Virus record (IMG/VR): IMGVR_UViG_3300032116_015770
DNA: 64,000 nt
DNA from: a virus
Strand: one strand, 5' to 3'
The translations under genes and the position numbers were made by a program. Below the pieces are notes generated by a model. That model had not been told where the DNA came from. It made no database searches and saw nothing but the letters and a program-made list of their open reading frames with translations. Shown piece after piece: positions 34,401-55,399 of the stretch. Positions within the stretch are counted from its first letter, which is position 1, and the number at the start of each line of letters is the position of its first letter.

Positions 34401-36380
34401 TCTAGAACTGCAATTGCACAACTACCCGTTTGGCATCATATTTGTGTACAAAGAGTAGATAATAACTGGGCTCTTTATATTAATGGTGTTAAAGAAGCAG
34501 AGCATTATTCTAATAGATCAACGTCTTCGCCATATACTTGGACTATATGGGAATCAGGTACGCTTGGATCTCGTACTGGGCAAGGATGGTATGGTTATTT
34601 TTATGGATTAAGAATTTGTAGAAGATCAACAGCCTACGGTACAGCTTCTAGAAGTAATCCAGAAAGAATTCCTGTTCCAAAAGAACCACTTACTAATATA
34701 CCTGGGTGTACGTTTTTAGGATTTGATAAACCATTTTTTGCTGACGTTACTACATCTTTAAATGGTAATGATGCAAACACTGGTAGTTTTGTGCCGGTTA
34801 AGGTGCATAGAGATCAAACTGTTAATACTGGTAGATGGGAATATGCCCCCTCACAATATACACCGTTTAAACCAGGACTTTTAGATTGGAAAAACACTTA
34901 TTTTAGTTTCGTAAATTCTATTACGACTACATATACAATAGAAAGTGCATTAAAAGACGGTGGGGGCATTGGAGATAATTTTTCTTATAATTCCTTATTT
35001 CATAAAACTTTTACTATGGAAGGGTGGCACTGGCTCGTTCAGTTTAATTCTCAAAATGTAATCCAAGGTAATTTTAGAAGCCAAGGTACTACGGTATTTT
35101 CCACTTTAAATACTAATACCGCTAACTCTGCTCTTGGTGGTGGCATATTATACACCACGCATTTTTATGACGGAGATGGTTATGGAGGTGCAGAGGCTTT
35201 TGGAAGAGTAGCTTTAAAATGGCATCATATTAGAACTACTAACCCGGGGTTTACTCAAAGATCATTTTTTTATTCTAATGATTGGGTAACTAACCCTGGT
35301 CATAATTATTCACATTTTATAATACAACATGACGCCGATTCTCATAGACTTACTATATGGGTAAACGGTATTAGAATAATGGATACAACAGGTAATTATG
35401 GTGCGGATGGACTTTATGTAATAGAAAATTATATTCTAGATGGTGCAATTAAAAGTTTAGAGTACCTATCTGGTTTAGACGCATTAAATGTAGAATTCAG
35501 AGCTAAATATCCTTTTTCTTTGCGAAGAATTCCAGTTGAAAAATGGAATAAACCTCCAAAAATAAATAAATTTACTGCATTGCGAGACACTACAAATGCA
35601 GCTGTAATACCAGTGGGTTTCTCATCGACTTATATGCGCCCTCAGGGTTACCCAAAAATTTCTAGAGGAGTAAGAAATTTAGGTAGACCAACTATATATC
35701 TAAATCAAAATAGTGTTACTGGAGCAGGTGGAGTTTGGACATCTACTACACCACCATGGGGTGCTCAAACAAATACCGCGTACCAGTTCACTGTTGGCGA
35801 CGCTAATGATTATAGACTGTTAGGTCCGTCTTATAATGACTTTACTATAGAAGGCTGGTTCGCCTGGGCTGGTGCGGCTTCACCTAATGATAAATATCTC
35901 TGGGAGTTATCAGACAATATTGGGTTAAGAACTGTAAGTGGGGCATACAGTCTACGATTTAATAATGTAGATACGCAGTCCTATACTAGTTCAGCAAACG
36001 TATCTGGAAACAGTTCTAACATTGTTTTTGATCATTTAGTAGTGCAGAGAAATGGTTCGGTATTAACATTATATGTTAACGGGGTCGAGCATTTAAGTAT
36101 ACCTATAGGTAATAACGCTACCAAGTACAGCCCTATTGCTCCTGCTACCGAATATAATCTAAACTTAAATTATAATAATGCTAGTATATGGGTTGGATCT
36201 GACAGTGAAAGAACGGGTAGTAAGAGCTGGTTAGGTTATTTTAGTGATTTTAGAATTACTAGATTGGCTAGATATGAAACTGCATTAGTTAATGGTGTAA
36301 ATACTATGGTTCATAGAGGAACTATAAGACCAGCATTACCAACAGCACCGTTTAAAGTACCAATTACAGAGATAAAATAA
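31464..36380 (+). CDS. multi-LamG tail fibre/receptor-binding protein (paralog A)
   Basis: About six FT(I/L/A/M)E.W...W.H...LY.NG LamG units. Confidence 0.8.
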   Translation: MSRKNGGYIGYLSADTVDKEGASGVYDISDQLDYSTSVPFNQLGEQFGAAVWPQTDTTEGDDPYLGDVVGGIYSPHIENTIFTEASGNWDEVFDPKTGHQNRLPTPTFLHQTNRYWALKFSTHRRNAIAITNKPEFNFGEGNFTIEFWYKPNTRGDGLSTSPHFYNKTILSYGESVSSVTRGWEICRRYTYGNQVFFTDLTTYYPFHETLTSTLWSSFEWVHYCFVRENGILKLYENGVLTKSVASTSNVTPTGTVTLKVGTNYASNTSHSTHGLLTDLRISNTVERTGLTFAVPSLPITATPNTVLLLASDTLCYHTGSNVGNDQNIVITDLNAHHQRWPDVPYNYKEPAKETAYGFNFPELYNTQSHLQYLRANLYPLLNDTSFTLETWFMSTTIRERNAIVPLVVISSDEDSYSFETTYNRGKTIGLYYNYRSTGPAAIVPNAYNTKDILMGYLAGGNVLVKPGYPSLGNATPYLETGEWHHMALTFDKDSGNIAVYVDGTYRDGTNVIGADMSRVDQKIFIGINPQNITRHNGDYYYKGCMQDITITKNVKYTANFTPTTSAIPLDNNILFKTLHDNTSSFRYFTPSGNVEFTVNNISSATINRITYEIGESRSRELGPVYFDDKYIPNFIEEEGVKKYERLASLHNRSDYGVVYPDLSPNNKSLDFETGPFTAEAWVYVVGGDGDQGIIGKGTATTGWGLSVVNNQLVFEHNNITITGSDPRVEYGSWCHIVAQRSGTGANLFHMFVNGRLASVDTVTSNLTTTSRNLYVLNKRNPETTNKNFIGLINNLRLSNVARYPVPVTNTIGTVAFTPSMGPYNNDANTVFLGYQYMWSDAESGGKIDLGSQMNPITHNSVPYLRGAPPATHRNWSYVTRDGSTGLKLYGVSWNDGTLTGGSPLTSDDFSIEFFLQPHNRLVGTTETRYIIDGRWNGEGPSADVTSLDTGGLYIRQNPYGYIEVGYNYDAGQFDAVALVSRTAIAQLPVWHHICVQRVDNNWALYINGVKEAEHYSNRSTSSPYTWTIWESGTLGSRTGQGWYGYFYGLRICRRSTAYGTASRSNPERIPVPKEPLTNIPGCTFLGFDKPFFADVTTSLNGNDANTGSFVPVKVHRDQTVNTGRWEYAPSQYTPFKPGLLDWKNTYFSFVNSITTTYTIESALKDGGGIGDNFSYNSLFHKTFTMEGWHWLVQFNSQNVIQGNFRSQGTTVFSTLNTNTANSALGGGILYTTHFYDGDGYGGAEAFGRVALKWHHIRTTNPGFTQRSFFYSNDWVTNPGHNYSHFIIQHDADSHRLTIWVNGIRIMDTTGNYGADGLYVIENYILDGAIKSLEYLSGLDALNVEFRAKYPFSLRRIPVEKWNKPPKINKFTALRDTTNAAVIPVGFSSTYMRPQGYPKISRGVRNLGRPTIYLNQNSVTGAGGVWTSTTPPWGAQTNTAYQFTVGDANDYRLLGPSYNDFTIEGWFAWAGAASPNDKYLWELSDNIGLRTVSGAYSLRFNNVDTQSYTSSANVSGNSSNIVFDHLVVQRNGSVLTLYVNGVEHLSIPIGNNATKYSPIAPATEYNLNLNYNNASIWVGSDSERTGSKSWLGYFSDFRITRLARYETALVNGVNTMVHRGTIRPALPTAPFKVPITEIK

Positions 36381-36386
36381 TTAGAT

Positions 36387-39300
36387 ATGAAGAATAGAAA
36401 AAATGGAGGTTTTATTGGGGTGAATGCCCCTTTAGACACGATTAGACCTGATGGATCGAAGGGTGTATTAAGCACTGATGAGTTGCTTACTGCTAGAAGT
36501 AAAGGGTTTAATTCTCCTGAATTTATTTCTAGATATCCAGAAACCATATCTACATCTCAGATTCCAGATTCTGAGGATCCTTATTATAATTATGTATTTA
36601 GTGGATTATATTCCCCTTTGGTTAATACATCTATTGTTACCGATCAAAGTAATAGATGGAATGCTTTTCTTGAACCATATTCAACTGCGAATGGTAGATT
36701 TGAAACTGCTACTATGCAACATCAGACCAATACTTTTTGGTCGAATAGATTTACTACTAGAAACCAGCAGGTTGTTACAGTAACAGATAGAGCTGACCTA
36801 AGGTTCGGTACCGGACCATTTACTATTGAATTTTGGTACAAAAGAACTCATCGTAATGCCGCTAACAGATTTTTCTTCAACAAAGGTAGCAGTACCGGGC
36901 CTACAGGGTGGCAGGTAGGTATTAACTCGTCATTTCAAATATTCTTTTCTGATGTAAATACTACAACAACCGCTGCTTATGCATTAAAACATGATCTATG
37001 GTATCATGTAGCTATTGTAAGAGAGGGCACAGGGTCTAATCAGTTAAAGATTTATATTAATGGTACTGTGATGGGTGTTGGTACCTCATCAAGTAACTTT
37101 ACTCAAACAGAAAATTTAGTTATTGGTCAAGATCGGGCCGGGACAGCTGCTAACCGTCTTGCTGGTTTTATTACAGATATTAGAATGAGTAATGTAGCTG
37201 TTTATACCAGCAACACATGCTCCCCTGTTGAGGTGTTAACTAATACAAGTAATACAGTTTTTTCTAGTCTAGCTACAGACTTAAATCTTGGATTTACTGG
37301 TAATTTATGGCAAGCTCAAGGCCACACAGTTACTGCAACTACAAGTGTGGTTTTTAGATTACCTGACGTTCCGATTAAGTATACCAATTCAGCATTATAC
37401 CCATCTCATTTTTTTGATACTGTAAGTCATCACTTTGCAAACACTGCACCTAATGTGTCCAGTCGTTCCTTTACTATGGAGACTTGGGTACAGACAGATA
37501 GTTTTGGTGGTAATACTACGCCTATATTTGTAGTAGGTACTACTGGTGCTGGTAGAAATTATGGAATATTTTTAAATCATGGGGGTGCGGGGTTAAGTAT
37601 TATGACCCCAAATATTACCAACACTGGTAACGTTATTACCGGGGGTCTGGGTGATTTAGGAAATGCAAATGCTCGCGGAAATTTATGGGTCGGTACTGGT
37701 CAACTAACTACCGGAAGTTGGCATCATATTGCATTTACTCATAGTAATGTAAATGGAAACCTAACAGTATTCTTGAATGGTAATGTGGTGAGAGAAGCCA
37801 ATATTGGTTTTGTCAATATGACCCCGGTTCTTACCCAAAACGTTTACATTGGTACAAGTCCAGACACATCAATTAATAACTTAAGAGGATGGGTATCTGG
37901 TGCCGCAATTACCGAGGGTTTAAAATATACATCTAATTTTACCCCTCTTCGTGAACCCTTCCCAATTGCTGGTAATACCTTATTTAATTTAAATTTAAAT
38001 AATAATGCCAGCTTCACAGCATATATTACACCAGCTAATGTCAGCATTTCTGCTGGTAATGTAGATATTATACCTAGAGTACCAGGAAGAGCTACCGGGG
38101 GATCACCTAGATTAGATGGTTATCATTCACCATTTACTTCTACTCAGTTAAGAGCTAACGTATCTCCTAACATGTATCATACGGGTAGAGCAGAAGAAAA
38201 TGGATTACTATCTTATCAAGGCCTGGCTAGTTACAATAACAGCGGTTTGGATACTGGTCGAATTTATACTACTCTTAAGCCTTCAGATACTTCTTTAGAT
38301 TTAGGTACCGACCCCTTTACAATAGAAGCATGGATATATCCAAATAGACAAAATAATGGTTATGGTCTTTGCGGTAAAGGTTCAACTACTACTGGGTTTA
38401 GTTTAGAAGTAGGTACTGTTACTACAAACTTATTGACATTTAGACATGGAAGCTCTGCAATAACAGCAACTACAGGGGCTATAAGTGTTTATTCTTGGCA
38501 GCATATTGTAATTCAAAGATCTAGTACAGGATCTAATGATTTTAGGATGTTTGTTAATGGTAGATTAGCTCATATTGATACTCTGTCAACAAATTTAACA
38601 GATGTAAATACCATATTCTATTTTCTTACTAATAGAACTAATTCTGGAATGGCTGTTGATGCCAATCTTTACATTAATAATTTTAGAATTAGTAAAGTAG
38701 CAAGGTATCCTACTACTGATACTATTGGTGCATTAGCCTTCACTCCATCTAGATTACCGCTAACTTCAGACAATGATACATCGTTATTATTATTTAATAA
38801 CTGGTGGACCGATATAACTATGTCACCCTATCTTGACGTAGGTCATCATCATTTTTATGCCCATGATCCTGGTAATGAAAATAAAACTGTTGGAGCTAAT
38901 CCGGTCTCTAATAAAAACTGGAGCGTATCATTTAACACTAATGCTGTAGGAATTAGAATTTACAACAGTACAACTAACACTGATGGTTTGAATGCAGATA
39001 GTAGTGATTTTGCATTTGGAACCGGTGATTTTACCTGGGAAATATTTGTAGCTAAAAAATCTCGCTTTAATAATGTAACTAGTACTACAGAAACAGGCTA
39101 CTTATGGAATTGTAAAAGAGTTAATACTCCAGATGATGATAGCTTGGCTATCTATGAAAATCACCAAGGAAAAATTTGTGTTGATTATGGTGATGGTACA
39201 AGATCCAGAATAATTCTAAGCTCAAGATCTAGTATAGCTGGTAGTATTGAAAAATGGTACCACATAGTTCTTCAACGTGTTAATAACAGACTTGCTTTGT

Positions 39301-46064: not shown

Positions 46065-47738
46065 ATGGCATTTCAGCTTTCACCAGGCGTGCTAGTTACA
46101 GAGAAGGACCTAACTTCGGTCGTTCCTTCCGTTGCTACTACAGCCGGCGGCTTTGCTGGCGCCTTCCAATGGGGACCTGCTGAGCAGGTTGTGACCGTAG
46201 ATTCTGAAAATATGCTTGTAGAGAGATTTGGTGTACCTGACGATAACACGTACGAGTCATTCTTTACTGCTGCAAACTTCCTATCATACGGTAACAATCT
46301 ACAAGTGGTTAGAGCAGTTCCTGCTGGCGCACGAAATGCAGTTGCTAATGCATCTGCTACAGCCGTATTAATTAAAAACGAAGATCAATATGTTGGATCA
46401 TATCAAGATGGTGCAGGAAATGTAGGAGAGTTCGCAGCTAAGTATCCTGGTACCCTAGGTAATGGAATTAAAATTTCCATGGCTGATGGAGACACATATA
46501 GCACCTGGGCATATAAAGATTTATTCGACGCAGCACCTAATGTATCACCTTACGCATCAAGCTTTGGTGCAACTCGTGATGAGATGCATATCATTGTTAT
46601 TGATGCTGATGGTAAGTGGACAGGTCAAAAAGATACTGTTCTAGAAAAATTCCCATTTGTTTCTAAAGCTAAAGACGCAAAAAGATCAGACGGTACATCT
46701 ATCTATTACAAGAACGTAATTAACGACCAGTCTAAGTATATTTGGTGGATGGATCATCCAGCTAATATGACTAACTGGAATACCGCAGCTGATGGTGGTA
46801 CAGTGTATGATGTTTTAGCTTCTAACGTTACTGTAACATTAAGTAACGGTACTACATCTACCACACCAGTAGATGCTAATATTATTTCAGCAATCAATCT
46901 ATTCAGCAACAGTGAAAAGTTTGACATCTCCTTATTCCCTGTAGGCCCTGCCTCTTCAGCAGTAGCAGCTGCTGCTATTGCAATGGCAGAAACTCGTAAA
47001 GATTGTATCGTGTTCTTATCACCTGAAAAGTCTGATGTAGTAAACAATATTGGAAGTGAAGCAACAGATTCAATTGCATTTAGAAATCTACTCTCATCTT
47101 CCTCGTATGCTTCTATAGACTCGGGTTGGAAGTATCAATACGATAGATATAACGATGTATATCGCTGGGTACCATTAAACGGAGATACAGCCGGTCTATG
47201 TGTAAGAACTGACTTTACTGCTGATCCATGGTTCTCACCAGGTGGGTTTAACAGAGGACAAGTTAAGAATGTTGTTAAGCTAGCTTTCTCCCCAAGTGCT
47301 ACTGAAAGAGATAGCTTATACAAAGCAGGAATAAACCCAATTGTTACTTTCCCAGGTCAGGGTACTGTCTTGTTTGGTGATAAGACAATGCTATCAAGAC
47401 CTTCAGCGTTTGATAGAATTAATGTACGTAGATTGTTTATCGTACTTGAAAAAGCTATCGCTGTGGCTGCTAAGTACCAACTGTTTGAATTCAACGATGC
47501 GTTCACAAGAGCACAGTTTAGAAATCTTGTTGAGCCATTCTTGAGAGATGTTCAGGGTCGTCGTGGTATTGTTGAGTTTAAGGTAGTATGCGATGACACA
47601 AATAACACTTCGGCAGTAATTGATAGAAATGAGTTTGTTGCTGACATCTTTGTCAAACCAGCTCGTTCAATCAACTTTATCCAGTTGAATTTTATTGCAA
47701 CTAGATCAGGTATTTCGTTCGAAGAAGTTGGAGCCTAA
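46065..47738 (+). CDS. gp18: tail sheath protein
   Basis: FQLSPGVLVTEKDLT, F.WGP, PWFSPGG..RG, GDKT, FDRINVRRLF, KPARSINFI.L.F. Confidence 0.97.
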   Translation: MAFQLSPGVLVTEKDLTSVVPSVATTAGGFAGAFQWGPAEQVVTVDSENMLVERFGVPDDNTYESFFTAANFLSYGNNLQVVRAVPAGARNAVANASATAVLIKNEDQYVGSYQDGAGNVGEFAAKYPGTLGNGIKISMADGDTYSTWAYKDLFDAAPNVSPYASSFGATRDEMHIIVIDADGKWTGQKDTVLEKFPFVSKAKDAKRSDGTSIYYKNVINDQSKYIWWMDHPANMTNWNTAADGGTVYDVLASNVTVTLSNGTTSTTPVDANIISAINLFSNSEKFDISLFPVGPASSAVAAAAIAMAETRKDCIVFLSPEKSDVVNNIGSEATDSIAFRNLLSSSSYASIDSGWKYQYDRYNDVYRWVPLNGDTAGLCVRTDFTADPWFSPGGFNRGQVKNVVKLAFSPSATERDSLYKAGINPIVTFPGQGTVLFGDKTMLSRPSAFDRINVRRLFIVLEKAIAVAAKYQLFEFNDAFTRAQFRNLVEPFLRDVQGRRGIVEFKVVCDDTNNTSAVIDRNEFVADIFVKPARSINFIQLNFIATRSGISFEEVGA

Positions 47739-47752
47739 TAGGGAGAGAATAA

Positions 47753-48325
47753 ATGACAACATTTAATATAGAGCGTTTTAAATCTGCTCTTACCAATGGT
47801 GGCGCTCGCCCTAATCAGTTTGCAGTTCAGTTATCATACCCTACGTATGTAACTAACCAAAGCTTAGCTGTAGCGCGTTCACCGTTCTTAGTTAGTGTAG
47901 CAGAATTACCAGGTCAGACTGTTAATCCTGCGGTAGTGCAGTATAGAGGTCGTGAAGTTAAGTTTGTAGGTGATCGTATCTACGCACCATGGACCATTAC
48001 AGTTCTAAACGATTCTGAAATGTCCATTAGAACAGCCATCGAGCAGTGGATGGGAGGTATGGAAGACTATGCGTCTAAGATTGGTCGTATGGAACCTTCT
48101 ACATACATGCGTGACTTCGATGTATTCCAACTAGATAGAAATGGAAACATTTTAAAGTCATACAAGCTTGTAAATGCATTCCCAATTGAATTATCTCCTG
48201 TTGGTCTAGACTTCGGTGCTAATGATCAGATCTCGTCCTTTACAGTGACTTGGACTTATCAGCACTTTACCACATCGAGCAATCCATTGGGTAGCATTAT
48301 TGATTTTGGTAGAATTTTTAGATAA
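47753..48325 (+). CDS. gp19: tail tube protein
   Basis: GGARPNQF.V, YRGR.VK..GDR...WTITV.ND, QLDRNG. Confidence 0.95.
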   Translation: MTTFNIERFKSALTNGGARPNQFAVQLSYPTYVTNQSLAVARSPFLVSVAELPGQTVNPAVVQYRGREVKFVGDRIYAPWTITVLNDSEMSIRTAIEQWMGGMEDYASKIGRMEPSTYMRDFDVFQLDRNGNILKSYKLVNAFPIELSPVGLDFGANDQISSFTVTWTYQHFTTSSNPLGSIIDFGRIFR

Positions 48326-48343
48326 TATTTTTTATATAATTTA

Positions 48344-49888
48344 ATGGCTATTACACTATTTGGCTTTACTATTGGTCGTGACAATAGGCAGCAGGAGTTA
48401 AAGAATCAATCTTATATAACTCCTGTTGCTGAAGATGGTGCTTCTACTGTATCTGCAGGGGGCTATTATGGCACGTATGTAGATATCGACGCATCTGCGA
48501 GATCCGAGTCTGAATTAATAACACGTTATAGAGATATAGCTAACTACCCTGATGTAGATACGGCGGTAGAAGAAATTGTTGCAGAGGCTATCGCCGCTGT
48601 TGACGACGAGCCGCCAGTATCTATTAATATAGATAATTTAGATTTAGATGAAAGTATTAAAGATACTATTAAAGAAGAGTTTGATGAAATACTAAGCTTA
48701 CTTGACTTCAATGATAAAGGTCATGATATTTTTAGAAGATGGTATATTGATGGAAGAGTATATTATCAAAAAGTAATCAATACAGCTCAACCTAAAAAAG
48801 GTATTCAAGAGTTAAGATATATTGACCCGCGTAAGATTAGAAAAGTACGTGAGGTACAAAAAGAAAAAACAAAAGACGGGGTAGAGTTAGTTAAGAAGAT
48901 CGATGAGTTCTTCGTCTACAACGAAAAAGGAATTAGTGTAACACCTGGTTATGCTCCATCTAACAACCAAGGTGCGGGTATTAGAATTTCTGTAGATGCT
49001 ATTGCATTCTGTCCTTCAGGTCTTTTAGATCTAGATAGGAATGTAGTCTTAGGTTATTTGAACAAAGCAATTAAACCTGTGAATCAGCTAAAGATGATGG
49101 CTGATTCTCTTGTCATTTATAGACTAGCAAGAGCTCCGGAAAGAAGAATATTTTATATCGATATCGGTAACCTTCCAAAGCAGAAGGCCGAGCAGTACAT
49201 GAAAGATATCATGAATCGATATAGAAACAAAATCGTCTATGATTCTACTACAGGTGAGATTAAAGACGATCGTAAGTTTATGACCATGTTAGAAGATTTT
49301 TGGCTTCCCCGAAGAGAGGGTGGTCGAGGTACCGAGATCACCACTTTACCGGGTGGTGAAAATCTCGGTCAGATACAAGACATTGAGTTCTTCCAAAATA
49401 AAGTTTATCAAGCATTGAATGTACCTGCTTCAAGATTTAAAGAAGGTAATGGTTTTAATTTCGGTCGTCAGGCTGAAATTAGTAGAGACGAATTAAAGTT
49501 CTCTAAATTTGTAAATCGTCTACGCAAAAAGTTTAATGAGTTGTTTGACGACTTACTTAAGACCCAATTACTTCTTAAAGGTGTTATTGTAGAAGAAGAT
49601 TGGCAGACGATAAAAGAAAAAATTCAATATCGTTATGCACAAGATCAGTATTATCAAGAAATGAAAGATGCTGAAAATCTTCGCAATAGAATGGACGTAT
49701 TAAATCAAATGACACCTTATGTTGGTACATATTATAGTATGCAGTATGTACGTAAAAAAGTTTTACGTTTAACTGATGAAGAGATTGATAATATTAAACA
49801 ACAAAATATGGAAGAACCTCCATCAGTTATGCCTGGTGCACCAGGTTCAGAACAAGCCGCCGCATTAAGCGGCGAAGTAAATCAGTAA
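48344..49888 (+). CDS. gp20: portal protein
   Basis: WYIDGR, IYRLARAPERRIFYID.GNLPK.KAEQY, EDFWLPRREGGRGTEITTLPGG. Confidence 0.97.
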   Translation: MAITLFGFTIGRDNRQQELKNQSYITPVAEDGASTVSAGGYYGTYVDIDASARSESELITRYRDIANYPDVDTAVEEIVAEAIAAVDDEPPVSINIDNLDLDESIKDTIKEEFDEILSLLDFNDKGHDIFRRWYIDGRVYYQKVINTAQPKKGIQELRYIDPRKIRKVREVQKEKTKDGVELVKKIDEFFVYNEKGISVTPGYAPSNNQGAGIRISVDAIAFCPSGLLDLDRNVVLGYLNKAIKPVNQLKMMADSLVIYRLARAPERRIFYIDIGNLPKQKAEQYMKDIMNRYRNKIVYDSTTGEIKDDRKFMTMLEDFWLPRREGGRGTEITTLPGGENLGQIQDIEFFQNKVYQALNVPASRFKEGNGFNFGRQAEISRDELKFSKFVNRLRKKFNELFDDLLKTQLLLKGVIVEEDWQTIKEKIQYRYAQDQYYQEMKDAENLRNRMDVLNQMTPYVGTYYSMQYVRKKVLRLTDEEIDNIKQQNMEEPPSVMPGAPGSEQAAALSGEVNQ

Positions 49889-49896
49889 TATAAATA
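49889..49896 (+). promoter_or_regulatory. late promoter (TATAAATA) for the core genes
   Basis: Immediately after the gp20 stop. Confidence 0.85.
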
Positions 49897-49921: not shown

Positions 49922-50155
49922 GTGGAAAACGCAGACATTATTAACAAAATGATTGATGACATCCTTAACGGTGATAACGTTGAAGCAGAGCAAGGTGTTA
50001 ATGCCGTTCTTGCTAGTAAGATTTCAAGTGCATTAGATGACCGTAAGGTAGAAATTGCACAATCAATTTACGGAAAAAAAGACGATGAAGTTTCGCAGGA
50101 AGACTTACCTGAAGAAGAAATTGATGTTGAAGAAGATACGACAGAGGTCGAGTAA
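49922..50155 (+). CDS. gp67: prohead core protein (gp67-like)
   Basis: GTG start with AAGGAG SD; AL..RK.EIAQS and acidic tail; position after gp20. Confidence 0.65.
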   Translation: MENADIINKMIDDILNGDNVEAEQGVNAVLASKISSALDDRKVEIAQSIYGKKDDEVSQEDLPEEEIDVEEDTTEVE

Positions 50156-50163
50156 AGGCTAAC

Positions 50164-51849
50164 ATGGCAATTAATTTTCTAAACCTTAGAGCATCGCTGG
50201 AAGAAAAAACATTAACACCAGCAGAAAAGAAAAAGCGCGAAGAAGTAGCTAAGGCTATTGAGCGTGAAAATCCAAACATGCCTATGGGTATGAAAATGGC
50301 TATTGCTACAAAGACAGCCAAGCGTGTTGCAGAAGAGACAAAATATTATTCTTTAGTACATAAAGCTACTAATAAGGTTTTAAGTACCCATAAAGATCTA
50401 GAATCCGCTAAAGACGAACACCGAGGTATGGATCAAGGTGAGCGAGCTCACTATCGTATTGCCACGTCAACTAAAGAACCAAAGACATGGAATATGAAAG
50501 AAGAGTTAGATGAATTAAATCAAATGACTCTCCAGCGTTATGCATCTAAAGCTTATAGAGTTGGTATGCAAGGTGGTCCTAAATCAGCTAAGCATTTAGC
50601 TGGTGCACAAAGAGCAAAAGAAAAATTAAAGTATGGTGATTATAGCGAAGAAGTTGAACAAGTTGACGAGTTAAAACAGTCTACTGTTAAAAGTTATATG
50701 AACAAATCTATTTCAGACTTTGGTCATCAAAACTTTATGAGCCGTGTTGGTAAAGGCTCCGATAAAGAAACTGCTACCAGAAAAGCCAAGAATAGATCCC
50801 TAGGTATCGAACGAGCAAATAAAAAAGTTGTCGGCGAAGATTTAGAACAAGTCGATGAAGTCTCTAAGAAGACAGCCTTAAGTTATATTCAAAAGAAAGT
50901 ATCTCAGATTGCAAAACGGCCTGGTGAAGCTATGTTATATACCACCAAGATGACCGGTAAAGATTATTCGAATTTAAAAAAAGCATATAAGCGTGCTGGA
51001 GTTAAAGAAGAATTTGAAATTTCTGAAGCTTATACTGAAGACGATATTGCCAATGGTGGTACAGTCATATACAAGCACCAAGGCAAACATTATATGAGCA
51101 AAGTTTCTCATAAAACAGGTGGTGGTGCCGGCACCAAAATTCATACTACATCATCCTTAGGTCATGTAGTACCTTTACATAACGTAGTTTCCACAGACGC
51201 TTCAGATTGGAACACTTATAAAAACAGACCTGTTAAAGAAGAATTTGAACTTGACGAAGCCAGTCAGTTTCCATCTAAAGAGCATGCTATTAAATATGCT
51301 AAAGAAAAAGTAAAGACACATAAGGACTCCGACGATGGCATTGAAGTATATTCTATGCCTAGTGGTGGAGCTAGAGTAGTACATACTATGAATAGTCAAG
51401 GCCGTCAACAGGTATTAAAAGGTGGCGGTAAAAAAGTAACTACAGTTACACGCGAACAAGTTGAGTTAGATGAAGCTGGACCTTTTTCTTATGGTATGAA
51501 GCCTCCTAGAAAAGGTACCATAGCTTATAATGCTATGATGAAGCGTAAAGAGCAAGAAAAAGGTAAACAACCTATTGAACCAAAAGATCAAATGGTTGGT
51601 ATAGCTAAAAAATTAACTAAAGAAGAAGACACTCACTATTGTGCCAAGCATGTATACTCAGAGCTGTTTGGTGAAGGTCAAGTTGTTGAAGGTGATCATG
51701 CTGAGCCAAATGAAGACGGTCACGTAGAGTGGTACAACGTACAATTCGAACATGGTATTGAAAAAGTATTTACTGAAGATATCGAAATTATGATGGCAGA
51801 ATATCATGCTAATCATAAACGCAAAAAGAGAATGACAAATGGCAGATAA
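50164..51849 (+). CDS. prohead core/internal polyprotein (gp68 position) with repeated EExExxDE linkers
   Basis: About nine basic modules separated by EELDE, EEVEQVDE, EDLEQVDE, EEFEISE, EEFELDE, EQVELDE. Confidence 0.65.
   Translation: MAINFLNLRASLEEKTLTPAEKKKREEVAKAIERENPNMPMGMKMAIATKTAKRVAEETKYYSLVHKATNKVLSTHKDLESAKDEHRGMDQGERAHYRIATSTKEPKTWNMKEELDELNQMTLQRYASKAYRVGMQGGPKSAKHLAGAQRAKEKLKYGDYSEEVEQVDELKQSTVKSYMNKSISDFGHQNFMSRVGKGSDKETATRKAKNRSLGIERANKKVVGEDLEQVDEVSKKTALSYIQKKVSQIAKRPGEAMLYTTKMTGKDYSNLKKAYKRAGVKEEFEISEAYTEDDIANGGTVIYKHQGKHYMSKVSHKTGGGAGTKIHTTSSLGHVVPLHNVVSTDASDWNTYKNRPVKEEFELDEASQFPSKEHAIKYAKEKVKTHKDSDDGIEVYSMPSGGARVVHTMNSQGRQQVLKGGGKKVTTVTREQVELDEAGPFSYGMKPPRKGTIAYNAMMKRKEQEKGKQPIEPKDQMVGIAKKLTKEEDTHYCAKHVYSELFGEGQVVEGDHAEPNEDGHVEWYNVQFEHGIEKVFTEDIEIMMAEYHANHKRKKRMTNGR
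51001..51249 (+). repeat. 18-bp direct repeat GTTAAAGAAGAATTTGAA flanking one polyprotein module
   Basis: Copies at 51001-51018 and 51232-51249; GAGTTAGATGAA also occurs at 50503-50514 and 51463-51474. Confidence 0.8.
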
Positions 51850-52231
51850 ACATATTTTAAAAAATACTCGCAGACAAGCTGCGGTAAAAGTATCTGGCAC
51901 CGGTAGTGCAACTATCAGTGTCCAAGAACTAGCGTATGGTGATCAAACTATCACTACAGCTAATCTTCAGTTAATGCTAACCGATGCGTCTTTTATGACA
52001 TTAGCTAACGGTAATGTTACACGCAACGGTAACTTAATTTTAGTTATGCCAGCCGGTTCTGCTGATACTCTCACATTTACAAATGACCTAGGGGTTCATC
52101 TTAACGAACAAGCAAATGCTAACGTTGTAGTTAACCTAGGTGCGTCTGAAGGTGTCGTTATTCTTCAATTCTCTAAGGGTGATGGATACAACGATCCTAA
52201 CAGACAAAATCAAGGACCAGGCTCACTATGA
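51839..52231 (+). CDS. hypothetical head-region protein
   Basis: 130-aa ORF overlapping both neighbours; ILKNT...A.VKV and QFSK.DGY. Confidence 0.7.
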   Translation: MADKHILKNTRRQAAVKVSGTGSATISVQELAYGDQTITTANLQLMLTDASFMTLANGNVTRNGNLILVMPAGSADTLTFTNDLGVHLNEQANANVVVNLGASEGVVILQFSKGDGYNDPNRQNQGPGSL

Positions 52232-52875
52232 AACTAATTACTGAAACAGTTCAGGACGTTAAGTTCCTTACCGAAGCTAGAGAAGACGGTAGAAAGAATT
52301 TTTACATCGAAGGTATCTTCGGTCAGTCCGATAAAGAAAATAAAAACGGTAGAATCTATGGCTCTAACTTAATGGAGCGTGAGGTCGGTAAGTATCAAGA
52401 CCTTATTAACGAAAGACGTTCATTAGGTGAATTAGGTCATCCTCCTAATCCTTCCGTTAATTTAGATAAAGTATCACATTTAATTACCAAGTTAGAAATG
52501 AATGGTAAAGATGTGTATGGTAAGGCAAAAATTTTAGAAACTCCTATGGGTAATATTGCTCGTAATCTAATTGAGAACGAGGTTCGTTTAGGAGTATCTA
52601 CGCGTGGTCTGGGTTCATTAAAAGCTAATAAACAAGGCGTTAATGAAGTACAAGACGATTTTCATTTAGTTACAGTGGATATCGTTGCTGATCCTTCTGC
52701 ACCAGATGCTTTTGTACAAGGCATTATGGAGTCTGCAGAGTGGATTTTAGAAAACGGAGTTTGGAAAGCTGTACAAGTTGAACAAGCTCAGAAGGCGATT
52801 AAAAAGGCTTCAAAAACCGAATTAGCAGATACAAAATTGCGTGTTTTTGAATCATTTTTAAGAACTATCAAGTAA
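52228..52875 (+). CDS. gp21: prohead protease
   Basis: MKLITE, N.NGRIY, LGELGHP, ILETPMG, LGVSTRGLGSL, DIVADPSAPDAFV. Confidence 0.97.
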   Translation: MKLITETVQDVKFLTEAREDGRKNFYIEGIFGQSDKENKNGRIYGSNLMEREVGKYQDLINERRSLGELGHPPNPSVNLDKVSHLITKLEMNGKDVYGKAKILETPMGNIARNLIENEVRLGVSTRGLGSLKANKQGVNEVQDDFHLVTVDIVADPSAPDAFVQGIMESAEWILENGVWKAVQVEQAQKAIKKASKTELADTKLRVFESFLRTIK

Positions 52876-52924: not shown

Positions 52925-54028
52925 ATGTCAGTCGAAGCTAAAATTAAAGAATTGCTATCTCGTGCAAACGAGCAGAAGCAATTGACTGAAGAGTCTGCAG
53001 AAAACCTAAATGCAGCTGGCTATGGTGATGCCGGCAGCAAAGCAGCTAGTAGCGCGAAGAAAGACACTTCTAAAGCTGGTCAGGCTGCCATTGCTGGTGA
53101 TACCACTCAACCTAAGCAAGGTTCATCTGAAGATCCTTCCATGGAAAAACTAGACGATTTAGAGCCAGGTAAAACTGCTTCTTCTAAAATGTCTAAAGAG
53201 CCAAACACTCTTAACACAAAGGGTGATGCTAAGTCTGTAAAGACTCAAGCAATGGAAGAAGAAGAACATGACGAAGAAGTTATCGTTGAAGAAGAGGAAG
53301 AAGCACTAGATGTTAGTGCTGAACTAAACTCTATCTTCGGTGAAGAACTATCAGAAGAATTTAAATCAAAAGCTACTTCTATTTTCGAAGCAGCAGTTAT
53401 TGCAAGAGTTAATTCCGAAATGGATAAAGTAGTTGCAAAGCTAGAAGAGCAAGCAGCTGCTGAATTAGCAACATTTAAAGAGACAATCGTTGAGAAGGTT
53501 GACGGTTATCTTAATTATGTTGTTGAGCAATGGATGGAAGAAAACCAAGTTGCTATTGACTCTGGTTTAAGAACAGAGATTGCTGAAGACTTTATTTCTG
53601 GTCTTAAGAACTTATTTGTTGAACATTACATCGAAGTACCTGAAGAGAAGTATGATGTGATGGATGAACTTCAGACTAAGACTGAAGAACTAGAAAGCAA
53701 GTTAAATGAATCTATTGATGCAAATATTGAGCTCGCAAAAGAATTAGAAGAACTAAAAGCTTCTAAGATTTTTGAAGAGCAAACCAAAGGTTTAGCCGAC
53801 ACTGAAGTTGCAAAACTTAAGAAGTTAGTGGAAGGTATTGACTTTGGTTCAGAAGATCTCTACCGTGAGAAAATTTCAGTTATTAAAGAAAATTATTTCC
53901 CTAAAGCTGCAAAGAATTCTCCAGAGAAAATGCTCGTTGAAGAAAGTGGTACAACACCTACTTTCAACAGTAACGATCCAATGGCTAAGTACGTTCAGAG
54001 CTTATCAAGAACCGTCAAGTCACGTTAA
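52925..54028 (+). CDS. gp22: prohead scaffold protein
   Basis: LSEEFK.KA..IFEAAV, VDGYLNYVVEQWMEEN..AI..GLR.EIAE.F..GLK.LF.EHYI.VP, IKENYF. Confidence 0.95.
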   Translation: MSVEAKIKELLSRANEQKQLTEESAENLNAAGYGDAGSKAASSAKKDTSKAGQAAIAGDTTQPKQGSSEDPSMEKLDDLEPGKTASSKMSKEPNTLNTKGDAKSVKTQAMEEEEHDEEVIVEEEEEALDVSAELNSIFGEELSEEFKSKATSIFEAAVIARVNSEMDKVVAKLEEQAAAELATFKETIVEKVDGYLNYVVEQWMEENQVAIDSGLRTEIAEDFISGLKNLFVEHYIEVPEEKYDVMDELQTKTEELESKLNESIDANIELAKELEELKASKIFEEQTKGLADTEVAKLKKLVEGIDFGSEDLYREKISVIKENYFPKAAKNSPEKMLVEESGTTPTFNSNDPMAKYVQSLSRTVKSR

Positions 54029-54067: not shown

Positions 54068-55399
54068 ATGTACCTATCAGAACAACTTCAGGAAAAGTGG
54101 GGCAAGATCCTAAACCACGAAGATCTTCCTGAAATTAAAGATCAATATAAGAAGTCGGTTACCGCCGTTCTTCTTGAAAACCAAGAGAAAGCTCTTCGTG
54201 AAGAGCGTGCAATGTTGCAAGAAGCAGCACCTGCAAACAACATTTCTGACACAGCTGGTATCGACAAGTATGACCCAATTCTTATTGGTCTAGTTCGTCG
54301 TGCAATGCCTAACTTAATGGCATATGACATTTGCGGTGTTCAGCCAATGACTGGTCCTACAGGTCTAATTTTTGCAATGCGTTCCGTATACGGTAACGTT
54401 CGTACAGATTCAGGTCTAACTGAAGCTCTATACAACGAAGCTGATACCGACTTCTCGTCTTCAGGTTACGATACAGCATACGCTGGTACAGCTAAGAACG
54501 GTTCACACACTGGTTCAAACCCAGTTGATGGTTCTTACACAACTGGTGGTGGTATGACCACAGCTGAAGCAGAAGCTTTAGGTGATGCTTCTACTAACAA
54601 CTTCGGTTCAATGGCATTTGCTATTGACAAGACAACTGTTACAGCTCGTTCACGTGCTCTAAAAGCTGAGTACACTCTAGAATTAGCACAAGACTTAAAA
54701 GCAGTTCATGGTCTTGACGCTGAGTCAGAGTTATCAAACATTCTTTCACAAGAAATTATGTTTGAAATCAACCGTGAAGTAGTTCGTACAATCTACAAAG
54801 TTGCTAAGCCAGGTTCACCTGCTACAGCAACAGCTGGTACCTTTAACCTAGATGTTGACTCAAATGGCCGTTGGTCTGTTGAGCGCTTCAAGGGTCTCTT
54901 ATTCAACATCGAGCGTGATGCTAATCACATCGGTCAAGACACCCGTAGAGGGAAAGGTAACTTCATCGTATGTTCAGCTGACGTAGCTTCTGCATTGTCA
55001 ATGGCTGGCGTACTTGACTACGCACCTGCTCTATCAACTAACTTAAACGTTGATGACACAGGTAACACTTTTGCTGGTATCCTAAACGGTCGTTATCGTG
55101 TCTACATCGACCCATATTCAGCTAACCTAGGTGCTGCATCGCAGTTCTACGTTGTTGGTTATAAGGGTACTTCACCATATGACGCAGGTATGTTCTACTG
55201 CCCATATGTTCCTCTACAGATGGTTCGTGCAGTTGATCCTAGCAGCTTCCAGCCAAAGATTGGCTTCAAGACTCGTTACGGTATGATTGCTAACCCATAT
55301 GTAACAACTAACGCTAATAGTGCAGTTGCAGATACAGATACATTTACTGCAAACCGTAACCAGTACTATCGTCGTACTAAGGTTGTAAACTTAATGTAA
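54068..55399 (+). CDS. gp23: major capsid protein
   Basis: LVRRAMPNL.AYDICGVQPMTGPTGLIFAMR, ELAQDLKAVHGLDAE.EL, YCPYVPLQM, FQPKIGFKTRYG. Confidence 0.98.
   Translation: MYLSEQLQEKWGKILNHEDLPEIKDQYKKSVTAVLLENQEKALREERAMLQEAAPANNISDTAGIDKYDPILIGLVRRAMPNLMAYDICGVQPMTGPTGLIFAMRSVYGNVRTDSGLTEALYNEADTDFSSSGYDTAYAGTAKNGSHTGSNPVDGSYTTGGGMTTAEAEALGDASTNNFGSMAFAIDKTTVTARSRALKAEYTLELAQDLKAVHGLDAESELSNILSQEIMFEINREVVRTIYKVAKPGSPATATAGTFNLDVDSNGRWSVERFKGLLFNIERDANHIGQDTRRGKGNFIVCSADVASALSMAGVLDYAPALSTNLNVDDTGNTFAGILNGRYRVYIDPYSANLGAASQFYVVGYKGTSPYDAGMFYCPYVPLQMVRAVDPSSFQPKIGFKTRYGMIANPYVTTNANSAVADTDTFTANRNQYYRRTKVVNLM

Follow-up and report, generated by a model that had tools for sequence, protein, structure and literature searches.

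What does a T4-like phage encode between its prohead core protein gp67 and its prohead protease gp21, when the gene found there belongs to no family and its product reads as a string of small, mostly basic units? The question is raised by an open reading frame (ORF) of 561 amino acids (aa) at positions 50164-51849 (+ strand) of the 64,000-nucleotide stretch analyzed here (the window), which comprises bases 65057-129056 of the 165,076-bp virus record IMGVR_UViG_3300032116_015770. The virus is a T4-like myovirus whose nearest cultured relatives are Methylophilales phage Melnitz (58% identical in the portal protein), Pelagibacter phage Mosig, and cyanomyoviruses, all belonging to the Kyanoviridae. 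A preliminary description had taken the ORF for a capsid-packaged array of shuffled mini-proteins separated by prohead-protease sites. Our analysis leads us to consider its product probably a polyprotein of internal head proteins, which would be targeted to the capsid by an N-terminal leader and cut by gp21. The modules would then be retained in the head and injected, and may have an anti-defense role.

Organization of the 561-aa protein

With cuts placed after E14, E57, E117, E169, E232, E288, E365, and E437, and with less certainty after E488, the polyprotein divides into a leader of 14 aa and nine modules (A to I) of 43-77 aa each, all encoded on the + strand. The leader (aa 1-14; 50164..50205) ends in L-E-E, resembles a capsid targeting sequence, and contains F5 and E14, which are nearly invariant. 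Module A (aa 15-57, from KTLTPAE to RVAE; 50206..50334) is modeled as a helical hairpin of net charge +5 and ends in V-A-E, and module B (aa 58-117; 50335..50514) closes with the paired sites M-K-E113 and L-D-E117. Modules C (aa 118-169; 50515..50670; ending in V-D-E169) and D (aa 170-232; 50671..50859; paired sites V-G-E225 and V-D-E232) are two copies of one family, f0, with the signature L-x3-T-x3-Y-x2-K. Module E (aa 233-288; 50860..51027; family f8) has a core net charge of +10 and the paired sites V-K-E282 and I-S-E288, and is followed by the His-rich module F (aa 289-365; 51028..51258; family f4; paired sites V-K-E359 and L-D-E365) and by module G (aa 366-437; 51259..51474; family f7), which ends in L-D-E437. 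Module H (aa 438-488, starting AGPFSYG; 51475..51627; family f6) leads into a non-canonical H/I junction, LTKEE, and module I (aa 489-561; 51628..51846), usually the C-terminal module, is an acidic five-stranded beta-barrel with a basic tail.

The linker strings listed in the preliminary description are all found in the protein, as is the L/V-x3-T-x3-Y-x2-K start common to modules C, D, and E. Its picture of stereotyped acidic linkers holds for six of the eight junctions; A/B, with a bare V-A-E, and H/I (LTKEE) are not linkers with an acidic run. Likewise, its "mostly basic" modules are borne out for eight of the nine cores, which have isoelectric points (pI) of 9.1-10.6 in keeping with the small, basic character of T4-type internal proteins, the exception being the acidic module I (pI 5.4). 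Acidic [LIVMF]-x-E sites number six in this ORF, the maximum among the 471 ORFs of the 165-kb genome.

AlphaFold2 (AF2) modeled the whole chain with a mean predicted local distance difference test score (pLDDT) of 55: the helical hairpin of module A reached about 82 and the beta-barrel of module I 80-89, while the linkers fell below 50 and were modeled as disordered, and module F was poorly modeled (about 30). Module I modeled alone gave five strands with a mean pLDDT of 80.5, and its fold matches in Foldseek were generic SH3/Tudor-like structures, all with E >= 0.04. Residues H491, C493, H496, H512, and H548 of this module are fully or almost fully conserved in at least 30 homologs, and such conserved His and Cys residues in a small barrel may form a metal site. 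Because module I is nearly always C-terminal in this clade, it may have a role in assembly instead of being cargo. Searches of Pfam and PHROG with the whole protein and with each module returned nothing above chance. The leader with module A matched only viral hypothetical proteins in the ESM Atlas, and a weak structural look-alike, the HMG box, was not relied on.

Junction motif and candidate cleavage by gp21

The prohead protease gp21 of T4 cleaves after the Glu of L/I-X-E (PMC9026906). The window encodes a protease of the same family (MEROPS/Pfam S77) at 52228-52875 (+ strand; PF03420 Peptidase_S77, E 6e-34; phrog_207, E 1e-75), which is 40% identical to T4 gp21, and the L-Q-E/A of the window gp23 aligns with the L-T-E/A of T4 gp23 (the slash marks the cut). 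In the polyprotein, [LIVM]-x-E closes the leader and seven of the eight junctions.

To avoid circularity, the starts of six module families were located in the relatives by their own conserved sequence alone, and only then were the preceding residues checked. Among 353 family proteins, [LIVM]-x-E precedes 174 of the 178 unique internal junctions (97.8%), against a background of 2.6% in the same proteins. Because the junction contexts share ancestry, the binomial P of about 1e-268 is too extreme, but the enrichment is very large even so. The starts of module A are always preceded by the motif in relatives, and all 35 unique contexts upstream of module H end in it. Module A, often with no acidic run behind it, still closes in V-A-E.

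Many linkers carry a second site. It lies 3-9 residues upstream (mostly 4-7) in 46% of 900 linkers, compared with 7% at control sites that were not matched for composition. In the window polyprotein the pairs are E113/E117, E225/E232, E282/E288, and E359/E365, and a cut at both sites of a pair would remove the acidic stretch between them, so that the released products would be purely basic. Through this match to the gp21 motif, the earlier reading of the junctions as candidate protease sites gains indirect support. A predicted complex of gp21 (17-row alignment) with polyprotein residues 343-386 had a score of 0.01 (mark, 0.32) and counts neither way.

N-terminal leader

The capsid targeting sequence of T4 is MKTYQEFIAE (PMC8442874), in which residues 4 and 7 act in targeting and residues 8 and 10 in processing (PMC9026906). 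A leader had been overlooked in the preliminary description. In the family, [LIVM]-x-E ends at residues 8-14 in 186 of 335 N-termini, and many leaders read MK[TS]F[KQ][ED][LIF][LIM]xE, e.g., MKTFKEIMAE or MKTF..LRE at the predicted cut. The window polyprotein starts with MAINFLNLRASLEE before the K that opens module A, and its close homologs with MKTFKSFKANLEE before a K (MKTF..F....LEE or MKTF..LRE). By pattern, and not by a statistical model, the family leaders thus resemble the T4 capsid targeting sequence, as the T4 model predicts. Some family proteins have no recognizable leader, and many of those may be truncated gene calls. A genome-wide scan for further leaders of the targeting type with a regular expression was too unspecific and was set aside.

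The gp20-gp21 slot of Methylophilales phage Melnitz-3 (L001:8693-8941) encodes an 82-aa hypothetical protein with a targeting-like leader, KTLSQFKQELPE before K. Judging from this leader, the equivalent slot may hold an internal-protein gene in cultured relatives. In Melnitz and Mosig the slot contains small ORFs, which were also considered as module homologs; only gp67 matched.

Module shuffling among relatives

A search for homologs of the polyprotein returned 519 near-length and 265 shorter matches with patchy coverage, and phmmer against 1.84 billion representatives returned 2051 cluster representatives at E <= 1e-3. The end-points of local alignments (>=55% identity) cluster at module borders and linkers. 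Splitting the relatives at linkers gave 252 segment families, and 318 proteins make up 245 architectures; f0 is the commonest family, with 182 segments, and 35 pairs of families are found in both orders, so that modules do recur in other orders in relatives.

The modules of the window protein are distributed separately. Among 352 relatives, module A is present in 235, often internally, module I in 168, module H in 59, and module B in 47, where it is inherited independently of module A. One relative (P0005) has A, B, C, D, H, and I at 88-100% identity and lacks E, F, and G, and three others (P0002 to P0004) have C, E, F, and G at 89-100% identity and lack B and D. Copies of module F that are 91% identical occur in unrelated architectures, e.g., in the 751-aa slot protein of L006 and in P0096. 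Module content therefore varies widely across relatives instead of being invariant, and the breakpoints, the 245 architectures, and the mosaic identities strongly support the view that the modules are independent and exchangeable.

Length varies as freely: where gp23 is 66-90% identical to that of the window, the slot gene encodes 78, 121, 129, 196, 259, 276, 340, 365, 396, 402, 513, 539, 563, 629, or 751 aa. The 78-aa form (L062:6028-6264) is a leader with one module, and the 121-aa form (L027:4782-5147) is the same with module A inserted exactly behind the leader. Between these two loci the shared module aligns almost base for base, a clean cassette indel of module A. The slot genes grade from a classical gene for a single internal protein into a polyprotein gene.

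The preliminary description had proposed that modules are swapped by recombination at the linkers, and the breakpoints do fall there. The exact repeats in linker DNA on which it drew are present as described: 18 identical bases at 51001/51232, within a 29-nucleotide (nt) match, and 12 identical bases at 50503/51463. However, the longest run shared between linkers of one gene has a mean of 6.7 nt, compared with 6.1 +/- 0.22 after synonymous codon resampling, and shared runs of >=12 nt make up 4.7% against 2.5% expected. Since the repeats barely exceed the expectation from codon bias, guidance by DNA homology is weakened, and we set linker homology aside as the driver of recombination. Breakpoints in linkers can equally reflect selection for in-frame junctions that preserve modules.

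Gene order and probable late transcription unit

The polyprotein gene stands in the head-gene block of the window. Upstream lie gp18 (46065-47738), gp19 (47753-48325), gp20 (48344-49888), and, directly 5' of the polyprotein ORF, a gene for a 77-aa gp67-like prohead core protein (49922-50155, + strand; phrog_1064 "prohead", E 2e-6), which is kept in syntenic loci. Downstream, orf130 (51839-52231, + strand; 130 aa) overlaps both the end of the polyprotein ORF and the start of gp21, and is followed after gp21 by gp22 (52925-54028; PF25623) and gp23 (54068-55399; PF07068). The product of orf130 is beta-rich and belongs to no Pfam or PHROG family; most syntenic loci encode it, with identities of 25-82%. 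About 60 retrieved loci share the order gp20-gp67-X-orf130-gp21. The polyprotein ORF had been assigned to the "gp68 position"; it does lie between gp67 and gp21, but orf130, which intervenes before gp21, had been missed. BLASTP against T4 gp67, gp68, gp21, gp22, and gp23 (E <= 1) revealed no likeness to T4 gp68 for either the polyprotein or orf130, so that "gp68 position" applies in the positional sense only.

The sequence TATAAATA, the late promoter consensus of T4, lies ahead of gp67 at 49889..49896 (+ strand) and, to judge from its role in T4, is the likely start of a late unit. Its + strand copies in the window are only four (46006, 49889, 52884, and 54031), each directly upstream of gp18, gp67, gp22, or gp23, and overall the motif is rarer than expected from shuffling (5 copies; shuffled mean, 13). 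This distribution is consistent with late promoters of the T4 type. Judging from these positions, gp67, the polyprotein gene, orf130, and gp21 form an apparent single late unit.

Related proteins outside the slot

Two other T4-like contigs, both encoding an S77 protease and gp23, have, well away from their head genes, modular proteins joined by the same linkers. In one (L020:4417-6852; 812 aa), a cytidylyltransferase is fused to the modular tail, and this protein contains a copy of module G that is 48% identical; in the other (L019:4722-7353), a cytidylyltransferase is adjacent to the modular tail. Cultured cyanophages (P-HM2) annotate as "possible cytitidyltransferase" a protein containing a module I-like domain.

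The genome studied here has a second linker-rich ORF outside the window (G000 35472-36473, + strand). Its 333-aa product has four acidic [LIVMF]-x-E sites and a middle module that matches modules of family 2 in other polyproteins, and its very basic C-terminal domain resembles, by eye, the C-termini of the 615-aa protein of L019 and the 812-aa protein of L020. This ORF may encode another packaged protein of the phage.

Prochlorococcus phage P-TIM68 encodes a 1006-aa hypothetical protein (L109:44-3064; KM359505 142404-145424) with an f0-type module and EEVEKIDE and EETNLDE linkers, and 58 of the 353 family proteins match it. This cultured cyanomyovirus is a possible laboratory model for cleavage and packaging.

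Proposed pathway and alternative explanations

We propose that the polyprotein would be expressed late, together with gp67 and gp21, and brought into the prohead core by its short leader of the T4 targeting type. There gp21, the S77 protease, would cut after the Glu of [LIVM]-x-E at the leader end and at the module junctions, and in about half of the linkers, which have two sites 4-7 residues apart, the acidic spacer would be excised. The cuts would release some eight or nine proteins, small (43-124 aa) and for the most part basic, which would remain bound up with the packaged DNA and probably pass into the host alongside it. Over evolution, cassettes are gained, lost, replaced, and reordered, so that related phages would load different sets of cargo. 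Since no module matches a known family, DNA binding and anti-defense activity are guesses from charge and from T4 precedent, in which IPI* acts against GmrSD (PMC3012670); a link to deazaguanine modification of the DNA, suggested in the preliminary description, would be hypothetical as well.

Three other accounts of the gene have to be weighed. The protein could be an accessory component of the prohead core or scaffold, comparable to gp22, gp67, and gp68 of T4, whose gp21 fragments leave before DNA packaging, in which case the modules would be filler and nothing would be delivered. The location of the gene among the core genes gp67, gp21, and gp22 suits this account, and so does the size of the departing propeptide of T4 gp23, which at 65 aa is similar to that of the modules. 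Filler, however, would hardly keep 88-100% module identity across different architectures or yield 245 architectures from shared cassettes, nor would its length be expected to vary between 78 and 751 aa next to gp23 proteins with 66-90% identity. Related modular proteins, including a cytidylyltransferase fusion, also occur away from head genes, and basic cores favor remaining with the DNA, as T4 internal proteins do (PMC3012670). We therefore regard the scaffold account as unlikely, although it is the strongest of the three.

The protein might instead stay whole, e.g., as a DNA-condensing or structural head protein of many domains, in which the acidic segments are flexible spacers and hydrophobic-x-Glu is a feature of structural linkers. 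Cleavage is indeed read from the motif, and acidic spacers between basic domains could balance charge. Yet this leaves unexplained the strict final Glu with an aliphatic residue two before it at 97.8% of junctions, the same motif at the ends of N-terminal leaders, and the bare V-A-E of module A, which has no acidic run; an uncut protein is in our view quite improbable. Least plausible of all, to the point that we give it very little weight, is a late cytoplasmic polyprotein that is never packaged, cut outside the capsid by gp21 or another protease into modules that work in the producing cell. No physical tie of the protein to the capsid speaks against it, and some family members have no recognizable leader; but many family members start with a leader like the capsid targeting sequence, the gene lies within the head-core unit, and T4 gp21 becomes part of the prohead core and matures the head proteins there (PMC9026906).

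The reading as packaged internal head proteins, which we prefer, has its own weak points. The leader of the window protein (14 aa, with F5, L8, and L12-E13-E14) is less T4-like than those of its homologs, and the H/I junction (LTKEE) has no aliphatic residue at P3 and hence no [LIVM]-x-E. The motif is short (three residues) and also occurs inside modules, at E509 and E546 of module I, and the junction counts are phylogenetically non-independent. No module matched a known DNA-binding or anti-defense family in Pfam or PHROG, and 85 relatives gave only scattered domains of unknown function (DUFs); nor did tblastn against 50,697 phage records, including T4, find a close cultured phage with the gene. 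Retention of the pieces is not assured either, because T4 proteins that are cut many times are mostly expelled from the head (PMC9026906) and T4 internal proteins are each cut once (PMC8442874).

Comparison with known systems

Among known systems, the T4 internal proteins, which carry a capsid targeting sequence and are processed by gp21, come closest. IPI, IPII, IPIII, and Alt, like the predicted polyprotein products, are small basic proteins of a T4-like phage with an S77 protease. Their N-terminal leaders, about 10 aa long, end in an aliphatic-x-Glu site, and the proteins vary greatly among related phages, with only the targeting sequence in common (PMC3012670; PMC9026906). They differ in being encoded by separate genes, each product being cut once (PMC8442874), whereas the polyprotein has up to nine units in one chain with predicted internal sites. 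Unlike the T4 ip loci, its gene lies inside the gp67-gp21 core unit, and its content is freely recombined. The tblastn search found no sequence homology to IPI, IPII, IPIII, Alt, or any other T4 protein, which is no argument against the mechanism because the T4 internal proteins are mutually unrelated in sequence (PMC9026906).

The core proteins gp22, gp67, and gp68 of T4 share with the polyprotein the neighborhood (gp20-67-68-21-22-23 in T4) and several gp21 sites per chain, which are predicted here, but they form a conserved scaffold whose fragments mostly leave the head (PMC9026906), while the polyprotein is hypervariable in length and content. Polyvalent proteins also combine many unrelated domains per polypeptide in combinatorial architectures (Iyer et al., 2017; PMC5512222), and the prediction for them is packaging, entry into the host together with the DNA, and in some cases separation into pieces (PMC5512222). 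Their domains are largely recognizable enzymes, and their proposed processing depends on peptidase domains of their own; here the modules have 43-124 aa and belong to no known family, and the head-maturation protease is proposed to cut them apart in trans, at linkers of a stereotyped form. No enzymatic or peptidase domain of the polyvalent type, and indeed no Pfam domain, was found in the protein or its separate modules, and the 85 relatives had scattered DUFs. In giant phages related to phiKZ (201phi2-1 and SPN3US), inner-body and ejection proteins are cut after Glu by a gp21-related prohead protease at redundant multiple sites (PMC9026906). Those are separate, large proteins from which propeptides are removed, whereas the polyprotein is proposed to release many products, and no homology was found between them. 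In the literature that we searched, no description of such polyproteins was found.

Implications

If our reading is correct, a whole set of internal proteins would be loaded from one chain with one leader and cut inside the capsid, where T4 uses separate leader-bearing genes, and neo-N-termini are predicted after each junction Glu. T4-based vectors already rely on the capsid targeting sequence (PMC8442874), and such a chain would offer them a natural model for packaging several cargoes at once. The family is large, almost wholly unannotated, and hypervariable inside an otherwise conserved block of head genes, a pattern expected of arms-race genes, and it would provide a catalog of small modules that could be screened against defense systems. 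It is possible, though we offer this as a tentative extension, that the gp67-gp21 slot is a natural combinatorial cargo loader, whose modules are injected effectors against host defense or for host takeover and are exchanged as cassettes among co-occurring T4-like phages. In that case the roughly 250 segment families, nearly all of them unannotated, would be a large untapped pool of small counter-defense or DNA-handling proteins, and one leader and one protease rule would deliver the whole pool.

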